A DNA stretch of 64,000 bases from Gammaproteobacteria bacterium. Lineage in GTDB: Bacteria > Pseudomonadota > Gammaproteobacteria > Steroidobacterales > Steroidobacteraceae. The notes under the pieces are model-generated. The model ran no database searches. It was given only the letters and a program-made list of their open reading frames with translations, and was not told the origin of the DNA. The first letter of the stretch is position 1. Each line of letters begins with the position of its first letter. Below are positions 16,626 to 39,623 of the stretch, one piece after another. Position numbers and translations under genes: made by a program. Where the stretch lies: the NCBI GenBank assembly GCA_004297335.1, contig SCUD01000069.1, positions 39,611 through 103,610 of the forward strand, read 5' to 3'.

Positions 16626-16651
16626 TTCTCGCCCCACATCAGCCCCGGAGA

Positions 16652-17243: not shown

Positions 17244-18617
17244 TCAGCGTTGCGTGCCGGCCTGGTCGGCGCGGTCCGCGGCCAGACTCGCCATTGCCGG
17301 ATGCTGGCCGCCGGCCAGGCCCTCGATGAAGCGCAGGTTGCGATTGACCGTGCCCTGGATGTGCCGGACATCCTCGTCCGCCAGGTGCCTGAACTTGCCG
17401 AGCACCCGCAGGTACTCCGTGATCGCGACCGGGCGCCCGGGGTCCCGACTCAGGCGCAGGCCCTCGCCGGGCGCGAACTCCCACAACAGCACGAAGTTCG
17501 ACTCCACGGCCTTGCGTGCGACTTCCATGTTGTCCTGCGACGGAAACCGCCAGCCGGTCGTGCAGGGCGAGTAGATGTGCAGGTAGGCAAAGCCACGTTT
17601 CGAGGCGTCGATCGCCCGGTCCAGCTTGGCGTAGAGATCTTCCATGAATCCGGTCGAGGCCGTCGCGACGTACTCGCAGTTGTGCATCATCATCAGGACC
17701 GGCAGGTTCTTGGCGTCCTGGGTCTTGCCACGGCCGCGTTCGCCGACCGGGGTCGTCGAGGTCCAGGCGCCGAACGGCGTGCAGCTCGAGCGCTGCATAC
17801 CGGTATTCATGTAGCCCTCGTTGTCGACGCAGATGAAGAGGATCTGCTCACCGCGCTCGGCGGCGCCGGACAGCGACTGGAAACCGACGTCCGCCGCACC
17901 ACCGTCGCCGGCGAGCGCGACCGCGTTCACCTCGCGCCCCAGGCGCCGGTACTGGCGCTTGATGCCGGTCAGCATCGAGGCGGTGTTGGTCAGCAGCGGG
18001 TGAAAGACCGGCACCTTGGTACCGGTCAGGCCGTTGTATCCAACTGCACCCATGCCCGGGATGCAGCCCGGCGGCGTGGCCAGCACGGTGTCCGGACCGA
18101 TGCGGCGCAGCGTGTGTCGCATGACGAGCTCGGTGTTGCAGCCCTGGCATCCCGAGAGCCCCGGGGCAAACAGGTCCTCGAGATCACCAACCTCATTGTA
18201 GATGCGCGCCGTCGTGATATATCGCAACGCACCGGTATCGCAGACCTTTACGCAAGCCGGATCGCCGTCGCAGGTGTCGCACTTGACCACGTGCCTTTCC
18301 GCCGCGTTATAGACGATGCCGCCGTAGGCGCAGCCCACGGTGCACAGCAGGCAGTTGACGCACTTGCTGCCATCCCAGGCGATGACCCCATCGTCGCCGT
18401 GCTTGTCCAGCGCGGCCGCCGGGCAGCTGGCCACGCACTTCGGATCGGCGCACTGGCGGCACAGCGCCAGCGCATACGAGCCGTCGTCCGCGGCGATCTG
18501 GATCCGGGAATTGGCCGGATCCGCGCTGCCGGTCTTGACGCTGGCGCAGCTGCGCATGCAATCGCCGCAGCCATTGCAGAGTTCTGGGCGGAAGGCGATG
18601 GTGTTGTAGGCCGGCAT
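17244..18617 (-). CDS. 2-oxoacid:ferredoxin oxidoreductase beta (TPP-binding) subunit with an N-terminal poly-ferredoxin domain
   Basis: The first ~130 aa carry four CxxCxxC-type clusters (CNGCGDCMRSC, CRQCADPKCVASCP, CVNCLLCTVGC, CDTCDGDPACVKVC). The TPP-binding beta-subunit motifs follow (GCQGC, ALAGDGGAADVGFQ, CVDNEGYMNTG). Confidence 0.8.
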   Translation of the reverse strand: MPAYNTIAFRPELCNGCGDCMRSCASVKTGSADPANSRIQIAADDGSYALALCRQCADPKCVASCPAAALDKHGDDGVIAWDGSKCVNCLLCTVGCAYGGIVYNAAERHVVKCDTCDGDPACVKVCDTGALRYITTARIYNEVGDLEDLFAPGLSGCQGCNTELVMRHTLRRIGPDTVLATPPGCIPGMGAVGYNGLTGTKVPVFHPLLTNTASMLTGIKRQYRRLGREVNAVALAGDGGAADVGFQSLSGAAERGEQILFICVDNEGYMNTGMQRSSCTPFGAWTSTTPVGERGRGKTQDAKNLPVLMMMHNCEYVATASTGFMEDLYAKLDRAIDASKRGFAYLHIYSPCTTGWRFPSQDNMEVARKAVESNFVLLWEFAPGEGLRLSRDPGRPVAITEYLRVLGKFRHLADEDVRHIQGTVNRNLRFIEGLAGGQHPAMASLAADRADQAGTQR

Positions 18618-18633
18618 GCAGTGCGCCCCCGTT

Positions 18634-19887
18634 TCAGCGCCAGCTGCGCGACATGATGCGGCGCGCGACCGTCTGCGGGTCGGCCAGGAAGGCTGCGCGC
18701 AGCGGTCCCAGGTCGATGCGCCGCAGGATGAGTTCCCACATGATGCCCGGATCGAAGGGCGCGTTGATGCCGAAGATGCCGGTCAACTGGTCCTGTTGCA
18801 TCACGATCTTCAGGTAGCGCGCGCGATCGGCTTCGCGCAGCACCGTCTCGCCGATATCCTGGCGACCGACCGACACCGCCTGCTGGCCGAAGAACGTGTA
18901 GGTGTTGAGCGGTACTCCGCCGGGGTAGGGTCGCAGCGCAGGGTCGCCAGCCATTGCCTGCCCGGCGATGCGGCCCTGTTCGACGGCGTCAGGCAGGATG
19001 CCGTTGATGATCCGCGCCCCGGCATCCGTGCCGTAGAAATCCCGGGCCTGCGCGACGTCGCCGGCCGCCCAGACATTGCCGACACTGGTCTGCATGCGCT
19101 CGTCGACGAGGATCCCGCGATCCGTCGCGATGCCGGAATCGGCGATGCATTCCATCGCGGGCGCGACGCCGGTCGCGACCAGCAGCAGCCCGGCCGTGAG
19201 TTCCGAGCCATCGTCGAGCTGCAGCCGGATGCCGGCGCCATCGGCAGCGACTCCGGCCGCGCGGCGGCCCAGCAGCAGGCGCACGCCGCGGTCCGAGAAC
19301 GCGGACTCGATGATCGCGGCAGCATCCGCATCGAAGTAGCCGGCCAGCACCCGGGGCTGCAATTCCACGAGCGTGACCTGTACGCCCGCCTTCGCGAGGT
19401 TCTCGGCGGCATGCATGCCGATCAGCCCGGCGCCGAGCACCACGGCCTGTTTGACGGATGGCAGCGCGGCGTGCAGGCCGATCGCGTCATCGAGCCGCCG
19501 CAACACGTGGAACTTCACCCCCCGCAGGCCGGGAATCGGCGGCAGCTGTGGCGCCGCGCCGGTCGCCAGCAGCAGCCGCTCGTAGCCGATCAGGGAACCG
19601 TCGTCCAGCCGGAGCTGATTCGCCGTCGCCTCCACGGCGGTGACGGTGCGACCACGGAGCAGTTGGGCCTTCTGCTCCGCAAACCAGGCCTCGTCCTTCA
19701 GCGCTACACGCTCCGGCGCTGAGCGCCCGGACACGACATAGGGAAGTACCGTCGGCGAGTACGGGAGTGCATCGTCGCGCGTGATCATTGCGAGGCTGCC
19801 CTCGGCATCCTGCATGCGAATGGCCCGCAGCGCCTCGAGCCCGGCGTGGCTTGCCCCGACGATCACATAGCGGTTCGGCACCGGCAT
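18634..19887 (-). CDS. FAD-dependent pyridine-nucleotide-disulfide oxidoreductase family protein (ferredoxin/NAD(P) reductase-like)
   Basis: Two dinucleotide-binding motifs (VIVGASHAG and VVLGAGLIGMHAAE) and the distal FAD motif (WAAGDVA). It is inserted between the OFOR alpha and beta genes. Confidence 0.8.
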   Translation of the reverse strand: MPVPNRYVIVGASHAGLEALRAIRMQDAEGSLAMITRDDALPYSPTVLPYVVSGRSAPERVALKDEAWFAEQKAQLLRGRTVTAVEATANQLRLDDGSLIGYERLLLATGAAPQLPPIPGLRGVKFHVLRRLDDAIGLHAALPSVKQAVVLGAGLIGMHAAENLAKAGVQVTLVELQPRVLAGYFDADAAAIIESAFSDRGVRLLLGRRAAGVAADGAGIRLQLDDGSELTAGLLLVATGVAPAMECIADSGIATDRGILVDERMQTSVGNVWAAGDVAQARDFYGTDAGARIINGILPDAVEQGRIAGQAMAGDPALRPYPGGVPLNTYTFFGQQAVSVGRQDIGETVLREADRARYLKIVMQQDQLTGIFGINAPFDPGIMWELILRRIDLGPLRAAFLADPQTVARRIMSRSWR

Positions 19888-19888
19888 T

Positions 19889-21115
19889 TCAGCGGTCCTG
19901 CTCGTTGAGCCAGATCACGGCACCCAGGCCAGAATCGTCGGGCAGCGCACCAACGAGTTCAATCACACGGCCGAAGTGATCCGTCGTGAGATCGGCTCCG
20001 GCGAGCCCGCCGATGAAGCTCTGCGTCGCCGGCCGGCGGCGCGCGCTGTGCAGCGCCGCGATCACGTCCTGGTACAGGGGCCCGCAGTTCCAGCCAAAGC
20101 TCACCGACCGGTCGACGACGCCGATCCGGCTCGCATCGCCGAGAGCCTCGATCAGCGCCGCGACCGGGAACGGGCGGTAGGTCTTGACCCGCACCAGCCC
20201 CACCCGCTCACCACGCGCGCGGGCCTGGTCCACCGCATCCTTCGCGGCACCACTCATCGAGCCGATCGTGACCAGCGCACTCTCGGCGTCCTCCATCCGG
20301 TACGCCTCGACCAGCGCCGCATGCCGGCGTCCGATGAGCCGGGCCCAGTCCTCATGCACTTCAGCGATGATGCCGAGGGCATGCTGCATGGCTGCGCAGT
20401 GGCCCTTGCGATAGCGCACGAACATCGCCGGGCCGGGTCCGCCAGCGCCGCCGGTCAGCGGATCGACGCCCATTGGCCGCTCGGGATCGAGCGCGGCGTG
20501 CCAGTGCACCGCCGGCGGCGGCAGGAAGGCGTCGACGTCCGCCGGCTCGGGCAACTCGACCCGCGTCGCACCATAGGACAGGTAGTTGCCGTCATGACAG
20601 ACGTTGACCGGCAACATCACGCCGCGGTGCTCGGCGATCCGGTAGGCCATGATCGTCGTGTCGAGCACTTCCTGCACGGACTCGCAGTACAGCTGGATCC
20701 AGCCGGTCTCGCGCACGCTCATCGCGTCCTGGTGCCCGCCCCAGACGCTCTGCGGCGTCAGCGTGTCGCGCGTGACAATCGACATCACGATCGGGAGTCG
20801 CAGGCCCGGCGTGCGCAGGTACGGCTCGAACATGAAGGCCAGCCCGGGCCCGCAGGTGCCGGTGTAGGTACGCGCGCCCGCCAGCGCGCCGCCGTGCAGC
20901 ACCGACAGCACCGAATGCTCGCCCTCGACATCGACGATCTCGGCATTCAGCCGCCCGTCGGCCACGAACTTCGCCAGATACTCGACCAGCGAGGACTGCG
21001 GCGTGATCGGGTAGACGGCGACCATGTCCACGTGCGCCAGCGTCACCGCCCAGGCAGCAGCCTCGTTGCCATCGCAGACGATGGCCCGGGGACGCGGCTT
21101 CACCACGGCATTCAC
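19889..21115 (-). CDS. 2-oxoacid:ferredoxin oxidoreductase alpha subunit
   Basis: GNEAAAWAVTLAHVDMVAVYPITPQS is the canonical alpha-subunit N-terminus. The GTG at 21115 overlaps the delta stop (GTGA). The ATG at 21454 would overlap the whole delta gene. Confidence 0.8.
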   Translation of the reverse strand: MNAVVKPRPRAIVCDGNEAAAWAVTLAHVDMVAVYPITPQSSLVEYLAKFVADGRLNAEIVDVEGEHSVLSVLHGGALAGARTYTGTCGPGLAFMFEPYLRTPGLRLPIVMSIVTRDTLTPQSVWGGHQDAMSVRETGWIQLYCESVQEVLDTTIMAYRIAEHRGVMLPVNVCHDGNYLSYGATRVELPEPADVDAFLPPPAVHWHAALDPERPMGVDPLTGGAGGPGPAMFVRYRKGHCAAMQHALGIIAEVHEDWARLIGRRHAALVEAYRMEDAESALVTIGSMSGAAKDAVDQARARGERVGLVRVKTYRPFPVAALIEALGDASRIGVVDRSVSFGWNCGPLYQDVIAALHSARRRPATQSFIGGLAGADLTTDHFGRVIELVGALPDDSGLGAVIWLNEQDR

Positions 21116-21405
21116 GCGCCCTCCTCGATCATCCGGATCGCATGCTGCGGGCATTCGCGGGCGCAGATGCCACAGCCCTTGCAGGTGGCGAGGTTGAAAT
21201 CGAACCAGGCGGGCTTCTCGACCACGCACTGCACCGGGCAGTACAGCCAGCAGACCGCGCACTTGACGCAGCGCTCGCGGTCGATCACCGGCCTCATGCT
21301 CCGCCAGTCCCCTGGCAGCATGGGCGTCAGGCGCGTCGCGATCGGACAGAGATCGTCCGGGATCGTGGAGGCGTCGAACAGCGGCCGGGACTGACGCGTG
21401 GTCAT
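21112..21405 (-). CDS. 2-oxoacid:ferredoxin oxidoreductase delta subunit (2x[4Fe-4S] ferredoxin)
   Basis: 97 aa with CVKCAVCWLYCP and CKGCGICARECP. The ATG at 21405 overlaps the gamma stop (ATGA). Confidence 0.75.
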   Translation of the reverse strand: MTTRQSRPLFDASTIPDDLCPIATRLTPMLPGDWRSMRPVIDRERCVKCAVCWLYCPVQCVVEKPAWFDFNLATCKGCGICARECPQHAIRMIEEGA

Positions 21406-21974
21406 GCCGCGGCGCGCCGGTCGATATGGTGAACGATCGTGGCCGCATGACCACGCTCCAGGGCCCGCAGGTTCTGCTCGAGCCCCGCGTCGCGGAACTC
21501 GGAATCCCGCAGCGCCTCGCGCAGCGAATCCAGCGACACGAGCCCGGTGGTCCTGGCGAAGGCGCCCAGCATCAACGTGTTCGTGATCGACCGGCCGAAG
21601 ATCTCGCGGGCAATCGTCACCGCATCGCACAGCCCGACGGTCGCCACCTGCCCCGGAAACTGCAGCTCCGCGAGCGGCCTGGCGGTCGCCTGGACCCAGG
21701 TGCTGTTGTCGCGGATGCCGTCGAAGATATTGACGGCCCGGCCGACCGTCGGATCGATGCACAACACGCAGTCCGGACGATAGATGTTGGTCATCTGCCG
21801 GATCTCCCGCGAATCCATGCGCAGGAAACTGGTCACCGGGGCGCCGCGGCGCTCGAAGCCGAAGGATGGCACTGCGACGACGTAGTGGCCCTCGTGCACC
21901 ATCGCCGTGGCCAGAATGCTGCCCGCCAGCACGGCACCCTGCCCGCCTCGTCCGTGAATCCGGACCTCATACAT
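21402..21974 (-). CDS. 2-oxoacid:ferredoxin oxidoreductase gamma subunit
   Basis: The N-terminus MYEVRIHGRGGQGAVLAGSILA is the canonical gamma-subunit motif. 190 aa. Confidence 0.8.
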   Translation of the reverse strand: MYEVRIHGRGGQGAVLAGSILATAMVHEGHYVVAVPSFGFERRGAPVTSFLRMDSREIRQMTNIYRPDCVLCIDPTVGRAVNIFDGIRDNSTWVQATARPLAELQFPGQVATVGLCDAVTIAREIFGRSITNTLMLGAFARTTGLVSLDSLREALRDSEFRDAGLEQNLRALERGHAATIVHHIDRRAAA

Positions 21975-21986
21975 GCCGCTACCCTT

Positions 21987-22424
21987 TCATTCCGGGTTGC
22001 CCTCCTGGCACACCCGCAGGTAGGCCTCCATGCGCTCGCGCAGGTCTGGCGCAAATGGCTGCGGCCGGCCCTGCTGCATGTCGATGCTGACGATCACGAG
22101 GGTCGCCCGCAGCCGCAGCTCCCCGTCCACGCGGCCGTCGAAGCGCAGCCGGTACGAGGTGCGGCCAACCGCTTCCAGGACCAGCTCGAAACCGATGACG
22201 TCACCGAGGCGGCACGGGCGCAGGAAGTCGCACTCGATGTGGGCGGTCGGGAACCCGGTGCGAGTGGTCAGGATGCGCTGGGCGTACGGGATTCCGAGGC
22301 AGTTGCTGAACCAGTCCTCGACCGCTGCCTGGAACATCTCGAAGAAGCGCGGGAAGAACACGTACCCGGCCGGATCCGTGTGCGTGAACCGCACCAGCTC
22401 CTGATGTACGTAGCGGCCTTGCAT
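21987..22424 (-). CDS. hotdog-fold acyl-CoA thioesterase (4HBT/YbgC-like)
   Basis: 145 aa. VRFTHTDPAGYVFFPRFFEMFQAA matches the 4HBT-type catalytic N-terminal region. Confidence 0.7.
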   Translation of the reverse strand: MQGRYVHQELVRFTHTDPAGYVFFPRFFEMFQAAVEDWFSNCLGIPYAQRILTTRTGFPTAHIECDFLRPCRLGDVIGFELVLEAVGRTSYRLRFDGRVDGELRLRATLVIVSIDMQQGRPQPFAPDLRERMEAYLRVCQEGNPE

Positions 22425-22444
22425 GGCAGCCCGGCGCCCCCGGC

Positions 22445-22732
22445 TCAGGCCCGGAAGTGCGACGGTACGTCGCCCGAGAAGTCCTCGTCCGGGCTCAGCT
22501 GCCGCGCGCGCGCGAGCAGTTCAGCCTCACCCTCGACCCGGTCGGGATCCTGGATGCAGCACTCCTGCGGGCACACAGCGGCGCATTGCGGCTCGTCGAA
22601 GAAGCCGACGCACTCCGTGCACTTGGCCGGGTCAATGCGATGGATGGTCGGACCGGCGGTGATCGCCTCGTTGGGGCACTCCGCAGTACAGGCGTCACAC
22701 TGGTCGCAGCTGCTGGTGATGATGTATGCCAT
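22445..22732 (-). CDS. fdx: 2[4Fe-4S] ferredoxin, Alvin-type (Cx2Cx8Cx3CP second cluster, C-terminal extension)
   Basis: CDQCDACTAECP plus CTECVGFFDEPQCAAVCP, with a ~35 aa C-terminal tail. The ferredoxin that donates electrons to Thauera benzoyl-CoA reductase has the same architecture. Confidence 0.85.
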   Translation of the reverse strand: MAYIITSSCDQCDACTAECPNEAITAGPTIHRIDPAKCTECVGFFDEPQCAAVCPQECCIQDPDRVEGEAELLARARQLSPDEDFSGDVPSHFRA

Positions 22733-23612
22733 TTTCCTCGTCCTCCTTCAGGCCATGAATTGCCGCGCCGATCGCGCCGCAGTACTGCGCGTTCGGAGCC
22801 AGAATCGTCTTAATGTCCCCGAACCGCTCGGCGAACAGCGGCACGAGGATCGGGTGGTAGTTCATCACGCCCCCGGAGAATACCAGCGTATCGGTCGAAA
22901 TCGCGGTCATCTCCAGCACGCGCTTGACCACCGAACGGTACAGGGCGTAGATCAGGTTCTCGACCCGCTCCCCATGCATCAGGAGCTTGATGACCTCCTG
23001 CCCGGAAAATACCGTGCAATAACTGTTGAGCGTCAGCTCCCGGTCATGCCCGGCGGCCAGCCCCGGCAGCGACTGCATCGGCACCTCGAGCCGATGGGCC
23101 AGCTCCTCGATGTAGGCGCCGGTGCCAGCGGCACACTTGCGGTTGATCGCGAACTGGTCGACACGCCCCGGCGTTGCGCGGATCACCTTGGCATCCTGGC
23201 CGCCGATGTCAATGATCGTGTAGTCGCGATCGAGCTGCAACTGGTGCTGCACGCCCAGGAAGTGCGCCTTGATCTCGGTCAACTGGCCGTGGATGCCCTC
23301 GATGTGGCTGCGCCCGTAGCCAGTCGCATGAATCTGCTGCCCGGGCAGGAGCCTCGGCACGCCTCCGACCGGCGCGCCCGGCACGCGCTCATCGTCGACC
23401 AGCGGCGACAGCTCCCCGGTGCCGCCAGCCAGCGCGCGGTGCACATGCCCGGCGAGCGGGAACAGCGTGCGCTGCTTGCGCAGCAGCAGCACCCGGCCGC
23501 CGCGGTCCACGGCCGCCACCTTGATTTCCGAGCTGCCACAATCGACGCCCCAGAAGGTGGTGACGGCCGGCCCGGCCGCGGCAACCGGCGGATCGAGGGC
23601 GGCGGCGATCAC
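22695..23612 (-). CDS. BcrAD/BadFG/HgdC family ATPase (radical-enzyme activator)
   Basis: ASKHA motifs are present (GVDCGSSEIKVA, DIGGQDAKVI, NRKCAAGTGAYIEE, with the cluster-bridging Cys context). The GTG at 23612 overlaps the upstream stop (GTGA). The 3' end overlaps the ferredoxin start by 38 nt. Confidence 0.8.
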   Translation of the reverse strand: MIAAALDPPVAAAGPAVTTFWGVDCGSSEIKVAAVDRGGRVLLLRKQRTLFPLAGHVHRALAGGTGELSPLVDDERVPGAPVGGVPRLLPGQQIHATGYGRSHIEGIHGQLTEIKAHFLGVQHQLQLDRDYTIIDIGGQDAKVIRATPGRVDQFAINRKCAAGTGAYIEELAHRLEVPMQSLPGLAAGHDRELTLNSYCTVFSGQEVIKLLMHGERVENLIYALYRSVVKRVLEMTAISTDTLVFSGGVMNYHPILVPLFAERFGDIKTILAPNAQYCGAIGAAIHGLKEDEENGIHHHQQLRPV

Positions 23613-24793: not shown

Positions 24794-24795
24794 TG

Positions 24796-28178: not shown

Positions 28179-28714
28179 TGCGCGCCCGCCTTGCCGCCAC
28201 CGGCAGCCAGCGTGGCAGCCGTAGTCACGAACGCCTGCTCAATGCGGTTGTAGCCGGTGCAGCGGCACACGGTTGCGGAGATACAGGTCCGGATCTCGTC
28301 CCGGGTCGGCGTCGGCGTGCGCTCGAACAGGTGCACGCCGTTGATCACCATGCCCGGCGTGCAGAACCCGCACTGGATCGCGCCTTCGTCGACCATGGCC
28401 TGCTGCAGCGGATGCAGCACTTCTCCATCGGCAATACCCTCGATGGTCCGGATCTCGCTGCCCTCGACGTCGGCCGCGAGCAGCAGGCAGGCCAGCATCG
28501 GGCGACCGTCCACCAGGACACTGCAGCAACCGCACTCGCCAAGATCGCAGCCACGCTTGCTGCCGGTCAGGCCCAGCTCCTCGCGCAGGAACTCGAGCAG
28601 TGTGGTGCCAGGCTTCGCGATGGCCTGCTGCAGGACCCCATTGACGCGCAGGGCCAGCACCCGGGCGTCATTCACCCCGTGCTCGCGCGGCTGCGCCGGA
28701 TTCGATGTATTCAT
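28175..28714 (-). CDS. hcrC: 2x[2Fe-2S] small subunit of an XDH-family enzyme, 4-hydroxybenzoyl-CoA reductase gamma-like
   Basis: GCDLGECGCCSV and CGFCTPGM...CRCTGY motifs. An AGGAAGG RBS lies before the ATG at 28714. The longer ORF from 28912 is rejected. Confidence 0.85.
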   Translation of the reverse strand: MNTSNPAQPREHGVNDARVLALRVNGVLQQAIAKPGTTLLEFLREELGLTGSKRGCDLGECGCCSVLVDGRPMLACLLLAADVEGSEIRTIEGIADGEVLHPLQQAMVDEGAIQCGFCTPGMVINGVHLFERTPTPTRDEIRTCISATVCRCTGYNRIEQAFVTTAATLAAGGGKAGAQ

Positions 28715-33477: not shown

Positions 33478-33501
33478 CGCGCCGGACTGCCACTCCGATC
33501 C

Positions 33502-34344
33502 TCAGGCCGCCTGGGGTTCCGCGGCCTTCTCTTCCAGCCGGCGATGCCGGAAACCGGCCCAGAGCGCCGCACCAATCGCACCCGCGTAGATCGAGTCCGG
33601 GTGCACGAGGATGCGGGCCTTGAGCCGCTTGTCCTTGTCGGCCAGCTCCTGCATCGCCGCGACGAAGCCGGCGTTGCGGGCCAGGCCCCCGGTGACCAGC
33701 ACGTCGCCGCTGGTCTTGATCATGCGCAGCAGCCCGATCAGGCGCTTGGCCATCGACAGGTGGATGCCGCGCAGGATGTTGGACGTAGAGATACCGCGGC
33801 TGACCATGTTGATCACGTCGGTCTCCGCGAGCACCGCACAGATGCCCGATACCTGCTCCGGCGAATCGCCCTTCAGGGACAGCCCGCCGACGTCATCGAT
33901 CGCGACACCCAGGTAGCGGGCGATGTTCTCGAGGAACTGTCCGGAACCGGAGGCGCACTGCGAGGTCATCCGGTAGGCGAGCACCTTGGATCGCTCGTCG
34001 ATCAGCATTGCCTTCGCATGCAGCGCGCCACAGTCCACGACGGCCCGCACGTCCGGGTTCAGGAACACCGCCCCACGCGCGTGCGCCGTCATCGAGAAGA
34101 AGTGTCCGCGCCGGAAGTCGACCAGCTCGCCTTCGCCGGTCGTGGCAATATAGGCCACGTCGGACTCAGCGAGCCCGTGCCGCACCAGCACCCGGTCGTA
34201 GGCGGCGCGCAGCACCTCCTTGACGTTGCGCTTGCGGATCTTGTCCAGGTCCTTGAACAGCATCTCCTCGCGCTCGCCATCGAACTTCATCAGCACCGTC
34301 TTGATGGAGTCGCAGCCGACGTCTATTCCTACCGTGTAGAACAT
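33502..34344 (-). CDS. bcrD: class I benzoyl-CoA reductase-type ATPase subunit D
   Basis: 280 aa. ASKHA/BcrAD motifs: GIDVGCDSIKTV, VVDCGALHAK, SQCASGSGQFLE, VTGGLARN. Confidence 0.85.
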   Translation of the reverse strand: MFYTVGIDVGCDSIKTVLMKFDGEREEMLFKDLDKIRKRNVKEVLRAAYDRVLVRHGLAESDVAYIATTGEGELVDFRRGHFFSMTAHARGAVFLNPDVRAVVDCGALHAKAMLIDERSKVLAYRMTSQCASGSGQFLENIARYLGVAIDDVGGLSLKGDSPEQVSGICAVLAETDVINMVSRGISTSNILRGIHLSMAKRLIGLLRMIKTSGDVLVTGGLARNAGFVAAMQELADKDKRLKARILVHPDSIYAGAIGAALWAGFRHRRLEEKAAEPQAA

Positions 34345-34355
34345 GTCAATTCTCC

Positions 34356-35744
34356 TCAGGCCGCACAGGACGCTGACTGTCCCGCGCCGCCGCAGGTATC
34401 GAGTTTCTTGATTTCGAGATCCGCCATCACGCCCTTCGGGTCGCGCTTCGCGAACAGCGCGCCCCCGACCGCACCGGTGAAGATGCTATCGGCGCTGATG
34501 TTGATCTTCATCCGGCCGTAGTTCTCGAACACCAGGTCCTCGAGGGCCTTGGTGACCGCCTGGTTGCGGGCCACGCCCCCCGTAAAGGTGAACTCGGGCT
34601 TCACACCACCCGAGCGCGCCAGCAGGGACATCGCGCGCAGGATGATCGCGCGGTGCAACCCCGCGAGAATGTCCTCGCGCTTCTGGCCGAGCGACATCAG
34701 CTCGCGCAGCTCGGCGCCGGCGAACACGGTGCAGGTCGAGTTGATCTTGATCGGCTTCGTGGACTTCAGTGCCAGCGGCCCGAGTTCGTGCACGCCGATG
34801 TTCATTTCGTCAGCGATGTAGCCGAGATAGCGCCCGCAACCGGCCGCACAACGATCGTTCATCTGGAAGCCGGTCACGATGCCGTTACCGTCGACCTGGA
34901 TCGCCTTGGTGTCCTGGCCGCCGATGTCCAGCACCGTGCGGGTGCCCGGGAACATGTAGTGCGCGCCGAGCCCGTGGCACAGGATCTCGGAACGGATCTG
35001 CTCGCGTGCGAACGGCAGCGTCAGGCGGCCATAACCGGTGCCGACCGTGTTCAGCACGTTGAAGCGCCGCTCGGCCGTATCGGTGACGACCGCGGCGATC
35101 TCGGCGGCGAACGGCGCAAACCGCTCCTCGGCCGCGACCTTACCGGTCGCGAATTCCAGGTAGTCGCGGTACAGCCCGGCGAAGCTGTGGTTCTCGACCC
35201 GGATGATCGCGGCATCGAACAGCCCCACCAGCCGGTCGAAGGACACCGGAATCTCACGGGTGACCGCCTCCGCCTGCTTCAGGTAGTGACTGGTGGCCAG
35301 GTCGCGGAAGAAGTCGCTGGCGGCCGCGCTGCCCGGATAGAAGTCCGCCTGCGCCTGCAGGTCGAGGGCATCGAAGATCCGGCCCAGCGCCTGGTTGACC
35401 AGCTTGGTCTCCTCGGCCCCGAAGCCGTGTGCCGCGGCGAGCCCGATGCATTCGGCCCGCAGCGCCTTGAGCTGCTCGAGGTGCTGCGCCAGCGCATAGT
35501 TGCAGGCGAGCACCGCCATCAGCGGCTCGGCCAGCGTGCCGATCCGCGGACTGGCCTCGAGCTTCTTGCGCAGCAGTCCGAAGCGGGCGTTGATCTCCGC
35601 CTCCTCGCGCGCCACCTGGCAGGCCAGCTCGTAATTGCTGCGCGAATTGGTGATGCCACGCCCGAGCACCCGCTCCTGCTCGTCCAGGAACACGGCCTTG
35701 GTCGTGGTCGAACCGAGATCGATACCGATGTAGCAGTAGTCCAT
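34356..35744 (-). CDS. bcrA: class I benzoyl-CoA reductase-type ATPase subunit A
   Basis: 462 aa. GIDLGSTTTKAV, DIGGQDTKAI, NDRCAAGCGRYLG, FTGGVARN. The long insertion after the first ASKHA motif is as in BcrA/BadF. Confidence 0.85.
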   Translation of the reverse strand: MDYCYIGIDLGSTTTKAVFLDEQERVLGRGITNSRSNYELACQVAREEAEINARFGLLRKKLEASPRIGTLAEPLMAVLACNYALAQHLEQLKALRAECIGLAAAHGFGAEETKLVNQALGRIFDALDLQAQADFYPGSAAASDFFRDLATSHYLKQAEAVTREIPVSFDRLVGLFDAAIIRVENHSFAGLYRDYLEFATGKVAAEERFAPFAAEIAAVVTDTAERRFNVLNTVGTGYGRLTLPFAREQIRSEILCHGLGAHYMFPGTRTVLDIGGQDTKAIQVDGNGIVTGFQMNDRCAAGCGRYLGYIADEMNIGVHELGPLALKSTKPIKINSTCTVFAGAELRELMSLGQKREDILAGLHRAIILRAMSLLARSGGVKPEFTFTGGVARNQAVTKALEDLVFENYGRMKINISADSIFTGAVGGALFAKRDPKGVMADLEIKKLDTCGGAGQSASCAA

Positions 35745-35755
35745 GGTGCTCTCCG

Positions 35756-37030
35756 TCAGGCCGCCAGCCGCTTGGCTTCCAGCATCTGGAAGTACGACTC
35801 GAGGCGATTCTTGATGTTGGCGGCGCTGAAGTAGCGCGGATCCACGAGGTCACTCTCGATGAACGCACCGGCCTTGCCAGTGCGCTTCTCCAGCTCGCGC
35901 AGCATCATCAGCTGACCGGCCGAGAACGAATTGCAGCTCTTGATCGAGTTGAACAGGAAGCCATCGGCCTCGTAGTCATTGATGTACTGCTCGATCAGGT
36001 CGATGCGCGACGGCAGGTTGCGGTTGGTATAGCAGCCAAGGCAGTACTCGGCCAGCGTATCGAAAGGATGCCGCGGGTCATGGCGGAAGCCCTTGTCGTA
36101 CAGGCCGCCCACCTTGGTGTAGGTCGAGGCCACCATGACCACGCCCTCGTCGTAGAAGATCTTCCAGAACTCGCGGAAGCTGGTCCAGTTCGGCGGCCCC
36201 TCGGCCACGATCCGGTACTTCTGCTGTCGCAGCTCGCCCTCCGGCGTGGTCGGGCCCATGCCGTGCGCGACCCGGTACTCGACCTCCTCGCGCAGCGCCC
36301 GGTAGTACCCCTCGCAGTCGGGAATGCCGCGGAACGCGGTGAAGATCGGGCCGATGTAGTAGACGCCACCGAAGTAGCCGTCGATCGGCGATGGCCGGTG
36401 CTTGGCCGACTCCCAGACCTTGACCAGGTCGTCCTCGGCCCGGGCCGAACTCGCCAGCAGCTCGGACAGCCGGTCCTCGTCGAGCTTCTTGCCCGACACC
36501 TGCTCCAGCGCCGGCACGACGATCTCGCGCAGCTGGCGCGCGACGTAGTCGCGCATCGACGGCGTGATCCGCCCGTCGCCCTGGTAGGGCACCTGCAGCA
36601 TCACCATCGGGCAGTTATATTCCTGCTTCAGCAGCTCGAACCACTTCATGAAGGTGAAGCAGCCCGTATACGAGAGCAGCAGCAGGTCCGGTTCCGGCAG
36701 CGGCTCGCCGGTCGGCCCGAGGTTGCCCTTCTTGAGCATGCCAATGTCGCACTTGACGTAGGTGCAGACGTCCTCGGAGTGGCCGAGCTTCTCGGCCTCC
36801 TGGATGTAGTCCCCGCTCAGCTTGCGCATGCCCGACTGCAGCGCGTTCACCTCTGGATGCACGGGCAGCATGTCGAAGGCCAGGATCAGTTCGTTGAGGT
36901 TGCCGGGCACGAAGGTGTAGACGACCTTGCGGCCCTCCGCCTTCGCCCGCGACAGCTTCTCGTAGTGGTCGCCGAGCATCTTCTTCTGCAGAATCATGCT
37001 CTCTTCTTTCTGGACGGTGGCGTCGCTCAT
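35756..37030 (-). CDS. bcrB: class I benzoyl-CoA reductase-type subunit B
   Basis: BcrB/BadE-like sequence (KVVYTFVPGNLNELILAFDMLPVHPE, SEDVCTYVKCD, LLLSYTGCFTFMKW). The start at 37030 (TGATG coupling to bcrC) is preferred over 37045. Confidence 0.85.
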   Translation of the reverse strand: MSDATVQKEESMILQKKMLGDHYEKLSRAKAEGRKVVYTFVPGNLNELILAFDMLPVHPEVNALQSGMRKLSGDYIQEAEKLGHSEDVCTYVKCDIGMLKKGNLGPTGEPLPEPDLLLLSYTGCFTFMKWFELLKQEYNCPMVMLQVPYQGDGRITPSMRDYVARQLREIVVPALEQVSGKKLDEDRLSELLASSARAEDDLVKVWESAKHRPSPIDGYFGGVYYIGPIFTAFRGIPDCEGYYRALREEVEYRVAHGMGPTTPEGELRQQKYRIVAEGPPNWTSFREFWKIFYDEGVVMVASTYTKVGGLYDKGFRHDPRHPFDTLAEYCLGCYTNRNLPSRIDLIEQYINDYEADGFLFNSIKSCNSFSAGQLMMLRELEKRTGKAGAFIESDLVDPRYFSAANIKNRLESYFQMLEAKRLAA

Positions 37031-38187
37031 CAGACGGTCCCCCATAGCTTGATGGAATCGGCGAAAGTACCGGCCTGCTCCTTGATCACCTGGATCTGGC
37101 CGGTATTCTCGGAATAAGTGAAGGCGGTAAATGGAATGCCCGCCTCGGTCAACGCGCGCTGCCCCATCGGTCGGTCGAGCAGCGCCGGATCGCAGAAACT
37201 GGCGGCGGCGAAGATCACGCCCTCGGCATTACGGCGCCGCGCCTGCTCGACCAGGAAATCGCCGTTGTGACCATCGTCGACGTAGCGCGTCGAGGTCTGC
37301 ACCGTGTCCTTCATGTAGGCCTCGACCAGCGCGCCCAGTGGGTCATCCGACTGCGGCGTCTCGCCGAGCTGGTAGCGCGCGCCGAGCACCCAGTCGTCGT
37401 CGACGATGTAGCAGCCGCTGCCCTCCATCGCGCGCACCATGCTGAGCGGCGGCTGTTCGCAGAACAGGCCCGACACGACCACTCGCACGTTGTCGCGCAG
37501 CGGCCGGTCTGCCTGGCGGGCCGCGTCGAGATAGGCACGCAGCATCGCGGTGTGCTCGGTCACCTCGAGGACATTGCCCGCGCGCAGCAGCAGGTAGAGC
37601 TCCGACGTCGGCACCCGGTGCGGCTCCTCGGCGCGCAGGTCGTACAGCTCGGCCAGTGCCCGGCGATTCTCGTTGTACAGGACAATGGAACGGTTCAGCC
37701 GCTCCGGTGTCACCTCGACGCCCGACAGCTGCTGCAGGTCGTGCTGCAGCTCCTGCAGTTCGGCACGGTAGAAATCCCGTCCCGGACCGACCCAGCTCTG
37801 CGGAAAGTCCATGTAGCGGACATAGCGGTCCGGGAACATGATCTGCCACATGCCGCTCAGGTTGCGGATCACATCGCAGATCGCCGGGAACAGCATGCCG
37901 TCCAGGCAGGCGAGCTTGCCGGCCAGGCCGAGCTCGACGGTCGAGCGCGGCAGGTGGCAGATATAGGACTGGAAGTAGGCGTCGCCACGGATGATCTCCA
38001 TCGCGTCACCGCCGCCCATGATGCCGACCGGCAGCATGCCCGCGGCATGGATCACTTCGCGCGGCACGTAGACCGGCATGAAGCCCATCGCTTTGGCCCC
38101 GTGCCGCTGCTTCCAGTCGCGGACATAGCCGAAGTCGAGGTCGTTATAGATGTCCTCGCACTGCTCGACGATCGCTCGAATGCTCAT
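37030..38187 (-). CDS. bcrC: class I benzoyl-CoA reductase-type subunit C
   Basis: BcrC/BadD-like sequence (AMGFMPVYVPREVIHAAGMLPVGIMGG, FQSYICHLPRS). The ATG at 38187 lies 5 nt after the TetR stop. Confidence 0.85.
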   Translation of the reverse strand: MSIRAIVEQCEDIYNDLDFGYVRDWKQRHGAKAMGFMPVYVPREVIHAAGMLPVGIMGGGDAMEIIRGDAYFQSYICHLPRSTVELGLAGKLACLDGMLFPAICDVIRNLSGMWQIMFPDRYVRYMDFPQSWVGPGRDFYRAELQELQHDLQQLSGVEVTPERLNRSIVLYNENRRALAELYDLRAEEPHRVPTSELYLLLRAGNVLEVTEHTAMLRAYLDAARQADRPLRDNVRVVVSGLFCEQPPLSMVRAMEGSGCYIVDDDWVLGARYQLGETPQSDDPLGALVEAYMKDTVQTSTRYVDDGHNGDFLVEQARRRNAEGVIFAAASFCDPALLDRPMGQRALTEAGIPFTAFTYSENTGQIQVIKEQAGTFADSIKLWGTV

Positions 38188-38191
38188 GTCG

Positions 38192-38845
38192 CTACTCGCT
38201 GGTTGTGACCACCGGGCTTGAGGCCAGGCAGCCCTGGGTGAAGATTCCAAAGATGTCCGTGGTCAGGTCCCGGGGCGAGCCCAGCTCGTCGACCGCATAC
38301 CAGCCAAAGACCCAGTTCATCATGCCGAACAGCAGCCAGGCCTTGCGCTCGACCTCGGAGCGCGCAGTTCCGGGAGCGTATACCGCCATGTACTCGCTGA
38401 CCGCATAGCTCAGCACGTCCGAATAGCGCTGCTTCAGGCGGCGCACCGCTTCGCCGTGCGCCGGGCTCATCGGCTGCGTGCCGAGCATCAGGACCCGCAT
38501 CTCACTGCGATGCCGGCTGAAGTAATCGACGTGCGCCGTGATCAGGTCCCGCAGCAGCCCGGCCACTTCGCTCGTGCCCGCCGGCCGCCGCCGGACCTCG
38601 GCCCGGTAGGCGTCGCGCAGCCGCTCCGCATTGCTGAGCAGCGACGAGAAACCGCGCTCGTTGATCAGGTACAGCAGGTCTTCCTTGCTCGCGAAATGGT
38701 GGTAGAGGCCGGACAGGCTCCGCCCGGTCGTCCGCGCGAGATCGCGCATGCTGGTGCCGTGATAGCCCTGCCGCGCCATCAGCGCGGCGCACTGCGACAA
38801 AATGTCATCCGGGCAGTGCGCGACCTGACGCGCCGGCGCGCTCAT
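38192..38845 (-). CDS. TetR/AcrR family transcriptional regulator
   Basis: HTH segment ILSQCAALMARQGYHGTSMRDLARTTGRSLSGLYHHF. The ATG at 38845 lies 2 nt after the upstream stop. Confidence 0.8.
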   Translation of the reverse strand: MSAPARQVAHCPDDILSQCAALMARQGYHGTSMRDLARTTGRSLSGLYHHFASKEDLLYLINERGFSSLLSNAERLRDAYRAEVRRRPAGTSEVAGLLRDLITAHVDYFSRHRSEMRVLMLGTQPMSPAHGEAVRRLKQRYSDVLSYAVSEYMAVYAPGTARSEVERKAWLLFGMMNWVFGWYAVDELGSPRDLTTDIFGIFTQGCLASSPVVTTSE

Positions 38846-38846
38846 T

Positions 38847-39623
38847 TCAGGCGTCCTGCCAGCGCGGCGCGCGTTTCTCGATGAAGGCAGTGATGCCCTC
38901 ATTGGCGTCGGCGGTTGCCACCAGCTCGTCCAGATACAGCGCCTCGGCTGCACCGATCTGGGTCCGGTAGTGCGCGGCCACCGTCGCCCGCGTCACGCGG
39001 TGAGCGCAGCGCAGGCTCGACGCGCTGCGCGGCAGCAGGTTCTTTTCCAGGTAGGCGTCCACCGCCGCTGCCAGTCCGCCCACCTCGGCCTGCACGGCGA
39101 GCAGGCCGTACTGCCCGAGAACCGCGGTATCCAGGGTCTCCGAGGCCAGCACCATGCGCGGCGCGAGTGCGGCACCGGCCATCTGCGGCAGCAGCACCGC
39201 CGCCACCGGCGGGAACACGCCGAGCTGGATCTCCGGCACTGCGAAACGCGCGCTGCCATCGGCACACAGGAAGGTGCAGGCCAGGGCCAGTTCGAAACCA
39301 CCTCCCAGGCAGCGCCCGCTGACCTGCGCGATCGTCGATACCGGATGCTCCAGCAGCTCGCCGATCAGCGCGTGGAACACCGGCAGCATCTGCCCGACCT
39401 CGTCCGCGGTATGTTCGGCGACGCTCGCGCCATAGCAGAAGTGCGCGCCAGCGCCGCGCAGGACCATGGCCTTGCGCCGCGACGGCGCGCGCTCCGCGGC
39501 CAGCAGACCGCGCAGCTCCGTCATCATCGCCGAGCTCAGGATGTTGGCTGGCGGCGCATTCAGGGCCACTTCCAGCACCTGGCCATCGAAGCGTTCCCTG
39601 AGTGCCAGCGTTGCGTAGCTCAT
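38847..39623 (-). CDS. crotonase, cyclohexa-1,5-diene-1-carbonyl-CoA hydratase (Dch)-like
   Basis: 258 aa. The blocks GAHFCYGASVAEH, VPEIQLGVFPPVAA, SASSLRCA and EALYLDELVATADANEGITAFIEKR match my recollection of Dch-type hydratases better than generic crotonases. First gene of the long minus-strand cluster. Confidence 0.65.
   Translation of the reverse strand: MSYATLALRERFDGQVLEVALNAPPANILSSAMMTELRGLLAAERAPSRRKAMVLRGAGAHFCYGASVAEHTADEVGQMLPVFHALIGELLEHPVSTIAQVSGRCLGGGFELALACTFLCADGSARFAVPEIQLGVFPPVAAVLLPQMAGAALAPRMVLASETLDTAVLGQYGLLAVQAEVGGLAAAVDAYLEKNLLPRSASSLRCAHRVTRATVAAHYRTQIGAAEALYLDELVATADANEGITAFIEKRAPRWQDA

Follow-up and report, generated by a model that had tools for sequence, protein, structure and literature searches.

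The anaerobic catabolism of aromatic compounds is understood from only a few cultured members of the Betaproteobacteria, Alphaproteobacteria and Deltaproteobacteria. In Thauera aromatica, the benzoyl-coenzyme A (CoA) genes are arranged in the order had-oah-dch-bcrCBAD-fdx, with KorAB as the reductant of the ferredoxin (fdx), and the same species has the 4-hydroxybenzoyl-CoA reductase HcrCAB (PDB 1RM6); in Azoarcus/Aromatoleum, PadEFGHI belongs to the anaerobic phenylalanine/phenylacetate pathway. The clostridial systems HadBC (with HadI, LdhA and HadA) and FldBC (phenyllactate dehydratase, with FldI, FldH and FldA) combine a 2-oxo-acid reductase, CoA activation, an ATP-primed [4Fe-4S] radical dehydratase and a separate activase. 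Here we analyze an array of 21 genes in a 64-kb stretch of DNA from an uncultured gammaproteobacterium (contig SCUD01000069.1 of assembly GCA_004297335.1, positions 39,611 to 103,610), referred to throughout as the window. On its predicted gene content, the array is a specialized para-hydroxy-aryl funnel joined to a benzoyl-CoA reductase (Bcr), and it holds a widespread, uncharacterized module that includes a solitary alpha-type protein of the HGD-D family, which we call HGDalpha.

Compared with the Thauera benzoyl-CoA cluster, the array keeps the C-B-A-D order of the bcr genes, a Dch-like gene upstream and a ferredoxin of the Alvin/YfhL type; its BcrB, BcrC and BcrD proteins score above the Bcr-type cut-offs, and its relatives in other genomes carry had, oah and a 2-oxoacid:ferredoxin oxidoreductase (OFOR) of the KorAB type. 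Unlike the Thauera cluster, the window lacks had, oah and korAB, has a TetR gene between dch and bcrC, and contains fifteen further genes in the array, in an uncultured gammaproteobacterial host. The ferredoxin gene lies 11 kb downstream of bcrD, so the Thauera-type layout claimed for this DNA in an earlier note (the original prediction) holds for the C-B-A-D order and the ferredoxin type but not for a ferredoxin gene beside bcrD. The pad genes resemble those of Azoarcus/Aromatoleum in their E-F-G-H-I order and in having all five subunits above cut-off; they differ in lacking padBCD (phenylacetyl-CoA oxidoreductase) and padJ in the window, and in being joined to the Hcr/Bcr array in the slot of KorAB. 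HcrCAB shares with the Thauera enzyme the C-A-B order, the four-cysteine loop and 1RM6 as the top PDB match for subunits A and B, whereas its three subunits fall below the equivalog cut-offs and form a distinct subfamily. The likeness to the clostridial systems extends to HGDalpha, for which HadB is the top sequence and fold match and which keeps the three cluster cysteines. In contrast to HadBC and FldBC, HGDalpha is a single alpha-type subunit with three additional invariant cysteines, the window reductase is of the ketopantoate-reductase family (KPR) rather than a D-2-hydroxyacid dehydrogenase, and an AMP-forming ligase takes the place of a CoA-transferase; we propose that the window module is tied not to reductive fermentation but to oxidative beta-oxidation towards benzoyl-CoA in respiring bacteria.

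Gene identities were assigned with Pfam, NCBIfam and PDB searches, and gene starts were refined against Joint Genome Institute (JGI) gene calls and orthologues. Third-codon-position G+C and open reading frame (ORF) lists resolve the 21 minus-strand genes as an unbroken chain from the ATG of the dch-like gene (39623) to the padI stop (17244), as follows.

38847-39623, minus strand: Dch-like crotonase, array gene 1 (258 aa; Pfam ECH_1)
38192-38845, minus strand: TetR-family regulator (217 aa; TetR_N and TetR_C_24)
37030-38187, minus strand: predicted BcrC, benzoyl-CoA reductase subunit C (385 aa; TIGR02263)
35756-37045, minus strand: predicted BcrB, catalytic subunit of a Thauera/Bad-type class I benzoyl-CoA reductase (429 aa; TIGR02260)
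34356-35744, minus strand: predicted BcrA ATPase subunit (462 aa; TIGR02259, Pfam BcrAD_BadFG)
33502-34344, minus strand: predicted BcrD ATPase subunit (280 aa; TIGR02261)
31708-33477, minus strand: long AMP-forming acyl-CoA ligase (589 aa; AMP-binding and AMP-binding_C_3)
30788-31711, minus strand: KPR, a ketopantoate-reductase-family oxidoreductase (307 aa; ApbA and ApbA_C)
28779-30788, minus strand: 3-hydroxyacyl-CoA dehydrogenase/enoyl-CoA hydratase (HAD/ECH) fusion (669 aa; 3HCDH_N, 3HCDH, ECH_1 and ECH_2)
28175-28714, minus strand: HcrC-like [2Fe-2S] subunit (179 aa; Fer2 and Fer2_2)
25794-28178, minus strand: HcrA-like molybdopterin subunit (794 aa; TIGR03194, PDB 1rm6_A)
24796-25797, minus strand: HcrB-like FAD subunit with an extra [4Fe-4S] loop (333 aa; alignment to 1rm6_B)
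23609-24793, minus strand: HGDalpha, a solitary alpha-type HGD-D protein (394 aa; HadB-alpha model)
22695-23612, minus strand: HgdC/HadI-type ATP-dependent activase (305 aa from a GTG at 23612; BcrAD_BadFG, TIGR00241)
22445-22732, minus strand: 2x[4Fe-4S] ferredoxin of the YfhL/Alvin type (95 aa; NF033683)
21987-22424, minus strand: 4HBT/YbgC-type acyl-CoA thioesterase (145 aa; 4HBT_2 and 4HBT)
21402-21974, minus strand: predicted PadE, phenylglyoxylate dehydrogenase gamma subunit (NF045762)
21112-21405, minus strand: predicted PadF, delta subunit with two CxxCxxCxxxCP motifs (97 aa; NF045763)
19889-21115, minus strand: predicted PadG, alpha subunit (408 aa; NF045764)
18634-19887, minus strand: predicted PadH, epsilon (NAD-reducing flavoprotein) subunit (NF045765)
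17244-18617, minus strand: predicted PadI, beta (thiamine pyrophosphate and Fe-S) subunit, the final array gene (NF045766)

The window corresponds to positions 22-64021 of a 69.7-kb JGI metagenome contig (3300048074, Ga0496017_0000364), whose gene calls agree with this layout over the part that they cover. Starting from dch, the junctions of genes 1 to 11 are spaced by 1 and 4 nt, overlap by 16 nt (BcrC/BcrB), are spaced by 11, 11 and 24 nt, overlap by 4 and 1 nt, are spaced by 64 nt and overlap by 4 nt; those of genes 11 to 21 overlap by 4 nt, are spaced by 2 nt, overlap by 4 and 38 nt (the latter activase/ferredoxin), are spaced by 20 and 12 nt, overlap twice by 4 nt and are spaced by 1 and 16 nt. 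Overlaps occur at about 10 of the 20 junctions, only ~166 of the 22,380 nt are non-coding (~99% coding), and the widest gap is the 64 nt from the HAD/ECH fusion to hcrC. These coordinates bear out the one-strand array from 39623 to 17244 with gaps of at most 64 nt that had been described before, and the domain searches agree with its gene contents; the count of 21 genes also stands, with the correction that one of them is the TetR regulator. The activase frame enters the ferredoxin gene by 38 nt (22695-22732), where the related locus L043 (L numbers denote loci of our comparison) spaces the same two genes by 1 nt; the overlap reflects either a short C-terminal extension of the activase (…HHHQQLRPV) or a small indel. 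The window has a G+C content of 65-71%, and consensus-based scans for sigma-70 promoters and intrinsic terminators returned counts at or below shuffle expectation. On balance, the array appears to be a single mosaic operon for catabolism, or else a small number of closely linked units, from an uncultured gammaproteobacterium that probably belongs to the Lysobacterales. We discount a chance arrangement because the whole layout repeats in the relative L043/L126 (88-97% protein identity) and most of it recurs across phyla.

The protein on which the proposed module turns, HGDalpha, is by its profile and fold matches an alpha-type (HadB/HgdA/BcrB-like) member of its family. It scores 206 bits against the HadB-alpha model, 122 bits against BcrB and 57 bits against the double-cubane model NF040772 (cut-off 350), and its top PDB sequence match is HadB (4.8e-48), at only ~29% identity. 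An AlphaFold (AF2) model (mean predicted local distance difference test, pLDDT, of 82) gave template modeling (TM) scores of 0.89-0.90 to HadB, 0.86 to MbdO/BzdO, 0.75 to the double-cubane cluster protein (DCCP) and 0.71-0.74 to beta subunits; the HgdB-like label given to the protein in the original prediction does not survive, as it matches the alpha rather than the beta model and its beta-type fold matches are weaker. Residues Cys77, Cys116 and Cys344, together with Glu48 (the PEN glutamate), are invariant among 16 family members. The three cysteines align with Cys95, Cys128 and Cys380 of BzdO, which are ligands of the active-site [4Fe-4S] cluster (PMC11971306). HGDalpha thus looks like a dehydratase, being closer to HadB than to the catalytic subunits of benzoyl-CoA reductases in both sequence and predicted fold and keeping the cluster cysteines and the PEN glutamate; we propose that it acts as a single-subunit 2-hydroxyacyl-CoA (aryl-lactyl-CoA) dehydratase. 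His131 of BzdO was considered as a discriminator between reductases and dehydratases and was discarded, since the aligned residue is Phe in the window BcrB and MbdO and Val in HGDalpha and HadB.

The presumptive partner of HGDalpha is an activase that passes the TIGR00241 cut-off (148 bits; cut-off 125), matches PDB 1hux at 1.6e-32 and carries a GxDxGSS loop as well as KCAAGTG and CTVF motifs, which we take to be the cluster-binding (cysteine) motifs of HgdC-type activators. Its gene adjoins that of HGDalpha in 26 of 26 loci, with a 4-nt overlap in the window, and within 10 kb of HGDalpha no second HGD-D ORF was found in loci that lack BcrBC, in accord with the earlier description of a solitary HGD protein with its own ATPase. 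In this respect HGDalpha resembles DCCP, which likewise adjoins its own HgdC-like ATPase, DCCP-R (PDB 6ENO, 7YYL), but it differs from DCCP in its NF040772 score and in its lower TM score to DCCP than to HadB (0.75 vs 0.90). A role of HGDalpha and its activase as accessories of Hcr was also considered and rejected: L031 retains both without Hcr, and L127 has Hcr without either.

The genes that accompany HGDalpha suggest what its substrate could be. The ligase has FadD11 and PRK12582 as its top NCBIfam matches (~180 bits, far under cut-off) and reaches no equivalog; as stated previously, it is long and not of the benzoate-CoA-ligase type. Its proposed substrate is an aryl 2-hydroxy acid or an aryl-C3 acid. 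An ATGA overlap joins the ligase gene to that of KPR, a divergent member of the ketopantoate-reductase family (TIGR00745, 148 bits) whose weak matches in the PDB include 3wfi (52 bits); this entry bears the name 2-dehydropantoate 2-reductase, and we take it to be a D-mandelate dehydrogenase. For KPR we propose the reduction of a 2-oxo acid to an (R)-2-hydroxy acid. A scan of species-representative genomes with the KPR protein, onto whose hits the window proteins were mapped, found this subfamily only inside the cluster (35 loci). In the HAD/ECH fusion, the HAD domain is N-terminal and the crotonase domain C-terminal, and no equivalog was reached.

Among those of 44 non-redundant loci with enough flanking DNA, HGDalpha is accompanied by KPR in 28/29, by the HAD/ECH fusion in 28/29 and by the ligase in 26/29. 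The ligase, KPR, HGDalpha and activase genes are directly contiguous in L049, L051, L052 and L125, and in L052 this unit lies beside an O-demethylase-like gene set. A natural 'deletion' control is provided by L127 (JGI 3300020198, Ga0194120_10001061; 91% BcrB identity), in which the array reads dch-tetR-bcrCBAD-hcrCAB-fdx-thioesterase-padEFGH(I): the ligase-KPR-HAD/ECH and HGDalpha-activase blocks, which flank hcrCAB in the window, are both missing, indicating that the two are gained or lost together. From this gene context we infer that the ligase, KPR, HAD/ECH fusion, HGDalpha and activase form one functional module.

Distant relatives of HGDalpha (57-62% identity) occur in further telling surroundings. 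Some belong to operons in which activase and HGD genes are followed by those for an ADP-forming acyl-CoA synthetase, thiolase, ECH, HAD, an acetyl-CoA hydrolase/transferase-family protein (a possible CoA-transferase), a ligase and an IorA-like arylpyruvate oxidoreductase and, after further genes, by KPR. Others form IorA-had-dch-activase-HGD-acyl-CoA synthetase units or stand beside an FAD/CCG 2-hydroxyacid dehydrogenase, and in Bacteriovoracaceae a class I/II aminotransferase gene follows that of the activase. These contexts imply a gene logic in which a 2-oxo acid is converted to a 2-hydroxy acid, its CoA ester and an enoyl-CoA that then passes once through beta-oxidation; the aromatic surroundings point to aryl-lactates as substrates of the module.

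The enzymes that would receive the products of this module are encoded in the same array. The bcr genes are contiguous (33502-38187) and encode two HGD-D proteins (B and C) and two BcrAD/BadFG ATPases (A and D). Placement by NCBIfam model scores, which addresses only the split between Bcr-type and Bzd-type enzymes, gave 726 bits for BcrB (TIGR02260; cut-off 487), 514 for BcrC (TIGR02263; cut-off 421), 362 for BcrD (TIGR02261; cut-off 313) and 554 for BcrA (TIGR02259; narrowly below the cut-off of 578). Bzd-type models reached only 73-148 bits on the window subunits, with 73 for subunit O on BcrB and 125 for subunit N on BcrC. Cys94, Cys129 and Cys371 of BcrB align with Cys73, Cys106 and Cys360 of MbdO and with Cys82, Cys115 and Cys344 of HadB, taking as reference the ligand cysteines of the active-site [4Fe-4S] cluster (PMC11971306). 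By these scores, BcrCBAD is a predicted ATP-dependent class I benzoyl-CoA reductase of the Thauera/Bad type. The 120 best BcrB relatives (72-100% identity) all come from metagenomes or metagenome-assembled genomes (MAGs), the identical one from an NCBI MAG contig labeled Gammaproteobacteria, and no characterized Thauera or Rhodopseudomonas protein is among them. As had been anticipated, the array is not a copy of a characterized housekeeping locus. A protein search of a plasmid collection with BcrB returned only homologues of 23-27% identity. The dch-like gene product has TIGR03189 (cyclohexa-1,5-dienecarbonyl-CoA hydratase) as its top NCBIfam match, at 181 bits against a cut-off of 292, and its orthologues (46-72% identity) follow had-oah in relatives. 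The ferredoxin passes NF033683 (99 bits; cut-off 86), and the position of the thioesterase gene after the ferredoxin/OFOR genes is kept in relatives.

The Hcr proteins make up a three-subunit set of [2Fe-2S], Mo-pterin and FAD proteins. HcrA scores 791 bits with TIGR03194 (cut-off 995), far above the next family (XdhA, 471 bits), and matches the alpha subunit of 4-hydroxybenzoyl-CoA reductase (PDB 1rm6_A) with E = 1.6e-171, whereas HcrB and HcrC reach 212 bits with TIGR03195 (cut-off 405) and 158 bits with TIGR03193 (cut-off 258), respectively. As all three lie under their equivalog cut-offs, we regard the complex as belonging to a sister subfamily of 4-hydroxybenzoyl-CoA reductase. Alignment to 1rm6_B shows that HcrB retains 4/4 cysteines of the [4Fe-4S] loop of the beta subunit. 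HcrCAB is accordingly classed, by homology, as a 4-hydroxybenzoyl-CoA-reductase-like molybdenum enzyme with the reductive [4Fe-4S] loop, whose substrate could be a related 4-hydroxyaryl-CoA.

The five OFOR subunits all exceed the cut-offs of their phenylglyoxylate dehydrogenase models: PadE 324 bits (NF045762; cut-off 300), PadF 160 (NF045763; 150), PadG 703 (NF045764; 700), PadH 606 (NF045765; 475) and PadI 817 (NF045766; 700). The padF and padG genes are separate, each with a 4-nt ATGA/GTGA overlap, and PadF being encoded in its own frame means that the enzyme has five subunits, in keeping with the number given in the original prediction. A mechanically listed 521-aa ORF is an artefact of an upstream GTG, and the PadG start matches a 408-aa gene in L043. 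Betaproteobacterial proteins that carry the name phenylglyoxylate dehydrogenase beta share 70-80% identity with PadI. These scores identify the OFOR as what is predicted to be a bona fide PadEFGHI phenylglyoxylate:NAD+ oxidoreductase, and the identity to proteins so named suggests that it forms (4-hydroxy)benzoyl-CoA from (4-hydroxy)phenylglyoxylate. Since it would yield benzoyl-CoA, it is better viewed as a peripheral-pathway enzyme than simply as a ferredoxin reductant of the 2-oxoglutarate type, and the five equivalog matches set aside a generic ferredoxin-regenerating role.

The cluster to which the array belongs is conserved across six or more phyla, with 35 loci in genomes and over 500 in metagenomes, and the HGDalpha family was found in more than 503 metagenome loci. 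Hosts include Gammaproteobacteria, Alphaproteobacteria (Emcibacter and others), Blastocatellia/Chloracidobacterium, Bdellovibrionota, Myxococcales and others, with Lysobacterales and Thermomonas MAGs as the nearest named relatives. The conserved order is had-oah-dch-tetR-bcrCBAD-ligase-KPR-HAD/ECH-thiolase-SDR-(thiolase)-hcrCAB-HGDalpha-activase (SDR, short-chain dehydrogenase/reductase), and some loci continue past the activase with fdx-korAB-thioesterase-mobA. In many loci a canonical had-oah pair lies directly upstream of dch, the relatives' Had scoring 429-447 bits with TIGR03201 (cut-off 339) and Oah 517 with TIGR03200 (cut-off 464). BcrCBAD is present in 12 of the 22 loci with enough upstream sequence, and the TetR gene holds an equivalent position in 16/22 related loci. 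In the 64-kb window, tblastn with the proteins of relatives detected no Zn-ADH-type Had, no Oah and neither of the two thiolases, which agrees with the earlier statement that had and oah are absent. The window and its L043/L126 relative both lack had, oah, thiolase, SDR and korAB and have padEFGHI appended. We lean towards viewing the window lineage as a derived variant of a widespread ancestral cluster that lost these five functions, and it seems somewhat probable that its padEFGHI, which is of betaproteobacterial type, was acquired.

In L126 and L127, dch is gene 1 and is preceded by a divergent MFS gene, a sulfatase gene and boxCBA. The boxC-boxB-boxA genes (L126 1-3741; L127 1-3653), for the aerobic epoxidase pathway of benzoyl-CoA, are situated ~3.5 kb upstream of dch, a position outside the window, and BoxB of these close relatives scores 791 bits against PDB 3per_A. 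The neighborhood of boxCBA and the cluster in close relatives points to benzoyl-CoA as a hub for both oxic and anoxic ring attack, with both routes present in the same organisms.

A candidate control element precedes the array:

39660-39675, no strand assigned: perfect palindrome CCGAACGATCGTTCGG (core GAACGATCGTTC, 39662-39673), centered 44 nt upstream of the dch ATG

A palindrome of the form GAACGNNCGTTC precedes whichever gene opens the cluster (had or dch), at a distance of 35-95 nt, in L126, L127, L017, L020, L028, L029, L031, L032, L034, L041 and L111, and with one mismatch in L038; exact copies number 15 in 1.59 Mb, where 1.8 are expected, and the loci are gammaproteobacterial, alphaproteobacterial, from Bdellovibrionota and others. 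This placement suggests that CCGAACGATCGTTCGG is probably the operator of the cluster's TetR repressor and controls the array. The palindrome before dch also marks dch as the first gene of the transcription unit in the window lineage.

Combining these observations, we favor, with a little more confidence than doubt, a pathway in which the array leads phenyl and 4-hydroxyphenyl C2/C3 acids to benzoyl-CoA and begins the dearomatization of the latter without oxygen. KPR would reduce an aryl-pyruvate (e.g. 4-hydroxyphenylpyruvate from tyrosine) to an (R)-aryl-lactate, the ligase would form its CoA ester, and ATP-primed HGDalpha would strip the alpha-hydroxyl, as HadBC and FldBC do, to give 4-coumaroyl- or cinnamoyl-CoA. 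The ECH and HAD domains of the fusion would then hydrate and oxidize this product, and a thiolase, encoded in the cluster of most relatives and presumably supplied in trans here, would release 4-hydroxybenzoyl- or benzoyl-CoA. PadEFGHI would contribute (4-hydroxy)benzoyl-CoA from (4-hydroxy)phenylglyoxylate. Hcr would take off the para-hydroxyl, Bcr would reduce the ring and Dch would hydrate the dienoyl-CoA, with the ferredoxin as a low-potential electron supply for Bcr, Hcr and the activase. That two peripheral funnels, the inferred aryl-lactyl-CoA dehydration/beta-oxidation route and Pad, feed Hcr, Bcr and Dch has in our judgment slightly better than an even chance of being correct, and the assignment of the module itself to aryl-lactate dehydration is close to an even call, if anything just short of it. 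For a respiring anaerobe, a route from phenylpyruvate through phenyllactyl-CoA and cinnamoyl-CoA to benzoyl-CoA has to date been no more than postulated (PMC13416013). The earlier suggestion of a dedicated pathway for substituted aryl compounds stands to the extent that the array is specialized for para-hydroxy-aryl substrates, given the retained [4Fe-4S] loop of Hcr, while the methoxylated alternative derives only from the neighboring O-demethylase-like set outside the array.

More broadly, we advance, as a tentative proposal to which we give somewhat less than even likelihood, that HGDalpha and its activase are the first single-subunit (presumably homodimeric) members of the 2-hydroxyacyl-CoA dehydratase class, and that together with KPR and the ligase they open a new oxygen-independent route from tyrosine, phenylalanine or aryl-lactate through cinnamoyl-type CoA to (4-hydroxy)benzoyl-CoA. 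The users of this route would be respiring bacteria, often with a proteolytic or predatory lifestyle, from six or more phyla, and it would feed Bcr (anoxic) or Box (oxic). Literature searches for such a cluster or for a single-subunit dehydratase found nothing.

Several observations weigh against this reading. To our knowledge, all characterized 2-hydroxyacyl-CoA dehydratases are alpha/beta heterodimers, and HGDalpha has no beta partner. The reading gives no role to Cys28, Cys287 and Cys377, which are also invariant in the 16 members (62-100% identity); HadB lacks them, the extra cysteines of BcrC fall at other alignment positions, and the alignment to DCCP is ambiguous. The thiolase that the route requires, had and oah are all missing from the 64-kb window by tblastn. 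The window also holds no source of phenylglyoxylate (padBCD, padJ or a mandelate racemase). Pad occupies the slot that a KorAB-type OFOR holds in relatives and may serve in ferredoxin reduction also, or instead. Hcr, Dch and BcrA lie under their equivalog cut-offs and may thus act on somewhat different substrates. Conservation of Had and Dch extends to loci without Bcr and Oah; to account for this, the model has to place Bcr, a class II reductase or Box elsewhere in the genome. Finally, every relative found is a MAG or a metagenome contig.

Other explanations were weighed against the same evidence. Because had and oah are both absent from the window, the original prediction had set KPR, the HAD-crotonase fusion and the HGD protein in their place; in its full form, this explanation has KPR, the fusion and HGDalpha with its activase replacing Had and Oah for a substituted benzoyl-CoA analogue, with the OFOR and ferredoxin serving as electron donors only. 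The HAD domain could in principle oxidize a 6-hydroxy-enoyl-CoA and the ECH_2-type domain could hydrolyze the ring, and a KorAB-type OFOR does follow the ferredoxin gene in relatives. In relatives, however, the KPR, HAD/ECH, HGD and activase genes share a cluster with canonical had-oah, and they are also present in loci without BcrCBAD, so they are not Had/Oah substitutes; moreover, the module is absent from the close relative L127, which likewise lacks had-oah next to dch. The five PadEFGHI equivalog matches and the 70-80% identity of PadI to its betaproteobacterial counterparts further argue against the OFOR being a mere electron donor, and we consider the replacement of Had and Oah highly improbable.

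A second possibility is that the module serves the lower pathway and electron supply. Here the ligase, HAD/ECH fusion, thiolases and SDR would carry out a Pim-like beta-oxidation of the ring-opened C7 dicarboxyl-CoA, HGDalpha would run in reverse from glutaconyl-CoA to 2-hydroxyglutaryl-CoA, the thioesterase and KPR would lead to 2-oxoglutarate, and the OFOR (KorAB, or Pad-like here) would oxidize the latter and reduce ferredoxin for Bcr and Hcr. In Thauera, 2-oxoglutarate is the electron donor for ferredoxin reduction, and the order HGDalpha-activase-fdx-korAB-thioesterase in relatives, the generic beta-oxidation character of the HAD/ECH fusion and thiolases, and the joint loss of had, oah, thiolase and SDR in the window lineage all fit such a scheme. 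It is nonetheless unlikely in our estimation, as the cluster has no glutaryl-CoA dehydrogenase, ligase-KPR-HGDalpha-activase units exist without a Bcr, Kor or ferredoxin gene, distant HGDalpha relatives stand beside an IorA-like arylpyruvate oxidoreductase, a CoA-transferase and an aminotransferase, and the window OFOR is Pad-type rather than Kor-type. We also regard as improbable that HGDalpha and its activase form an ATP-driven reductase, i.e. a minimal, partner-less relative of class I benzoyl-CoA reductases or double-cubane proteins that dearomatizes or dehydroxylates an aryl-CoA. This idea draws on the conservation of Had and Dch beside HGDalpha where BcrCBAD is missing (the Emcibacter loci and the IorA-Had-Dch-activase-HGD-acyl-CoA synthetase loci), on three cluster cysteines and a glutamate as in BzdO, on a solitary, DCCP-like protein with its own ATPase, and on three extra invariant cysteines that could bind more iron. 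Set against it, HGDalpha is nearer to HadB than to MbdO, BzdO or BcrB by hidden Markov model (HMM) score and fold, its double-cubane score is 57 bits against a cut-off of 350, its extra cysteines have no aligned equivalents among those of BcrC, and an [8Fe-9S]-type partner subunit is lacking; furthermore, it is tightly coupled to a 2-oxo-acid reductase and CoA-activating enzymes, and it occurs alongside full BcrCBAD in 12/22 loci. A double-cubane reading of its six invariant cysteines finds no support in the BcrC alignment or the NF040772 score and is unlikely.

The array is set, judging from the predicted functions of its neighbors, in an aromatic/polyphenol island that fits O-demethylase-like, phloroglucinol, Pad, Hcr and Bcr modules into 45 kb. 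Divergent from dch, a complete set of genes for anaerobic phloroglucinol degradation occupies 39839-48014 on both strands. It comprises an SDR (39839-40639), a 3HCDH-type dehydrogenase (40644-41549), an SSF transporter, a BKACE protein (43280-44221; NF053538, 515 bits, cut-off 430), an IclR regulator, a 'cyclase'-family protein (45061-45900), a second SDR and an MFS transporter. These families match PGR, TfD, TAL and DPGC of Clostridium scatologenes (PMC10470551). The SDR and 3HCDH genes near dch were considered as Had substitutes and rejected, as they belong to this set and not to ring cleavage. A perfect inverted repeat, ATGTACCAGATGATGGTACAT (39790-39810), lies 29 nt upstream of the start of the PGR-like SDR gene and occurs once in the window against 0.04 expected; it is a candidate operator for the phloroglucinol operon, to which IclR might bind.

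Downstream of the array, the minus strand of 6308-15256 carries a corrinoid methyltransferase (O-demethylase-like) set: a URO-D-family methyltransferase, FolD, an amidohydrolase, a pterin-binding methyltransferase, RACo, a 227-aa protein, a B12-binding corrinoid protein and a methylenetetrahydrofolate reductase (MTHFR) with DUF5981. A set resembling it follows the ligase-HGD-activase genes in L052, and L043 also carries MTHFR and the corrinoid protein. On the plus strand, cytochrome b561 and two YceI-like genes (15505-17224) converge on the end of padI; L043, the 88% relative, has this trio after padI as well. A second HGD-D pair (51136-52422 and 54560-55639) is located on the minus strand within 48897-57597, amid CoA-transferase and TRAP transporter genes. 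This pair is cysteine-poor, one protein (HGD2a) retaining 2/3 cluster cysteines and the other (HGD2b) 1/3, and no activase gene is nearby. Three family III CoA-transferase domains accompany it, one at 48897-50126 and a double one at 52419-54563, which are presumably of FldA type and recall FldABC. At the other end of the window, an acyl-CoA set (2-4865) consists of a partial crotonase, an acyl-CoA dehydrogenase (388-1704), a TetR regulator (1701-2342) and a crotonase (about 2350-3097), with an SDR (3104-3874) and a second KPR-family paralogue (3888-4865; NF005089, 369 bits, cut-off 223) on the other strand; this set could supply the acyl-CoA dehydrogenase step for aryl-propionates.

The cluster places a Thauera-type benzoyl-CoA reductase, an Hcr-like enzyme and a regulator, all as predicted from homology, in uncultured Lysobacterales-like bacteria, and the same cluster occurs in Acidobacteria, Bdellovibrionota and Myxococcota, groups that are seldom counted among anaerobic aromatic degraders. 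The aromatic-amino-acid/polyphenol island bears on how carbon is turned over in anoxic soils and sediments. For the alpha-dehydration of phenyllactyl-CoA to cinnamoyl-CoA that has been postulated in respiring anaerobes (PMC13416013), the cluster offers a testable candidate. If HGDalpha is indeed active without a beta subunit, the accepted architecture of this class of radical enzymes would change, and a simpler scaffold for biocatalysis would become available.

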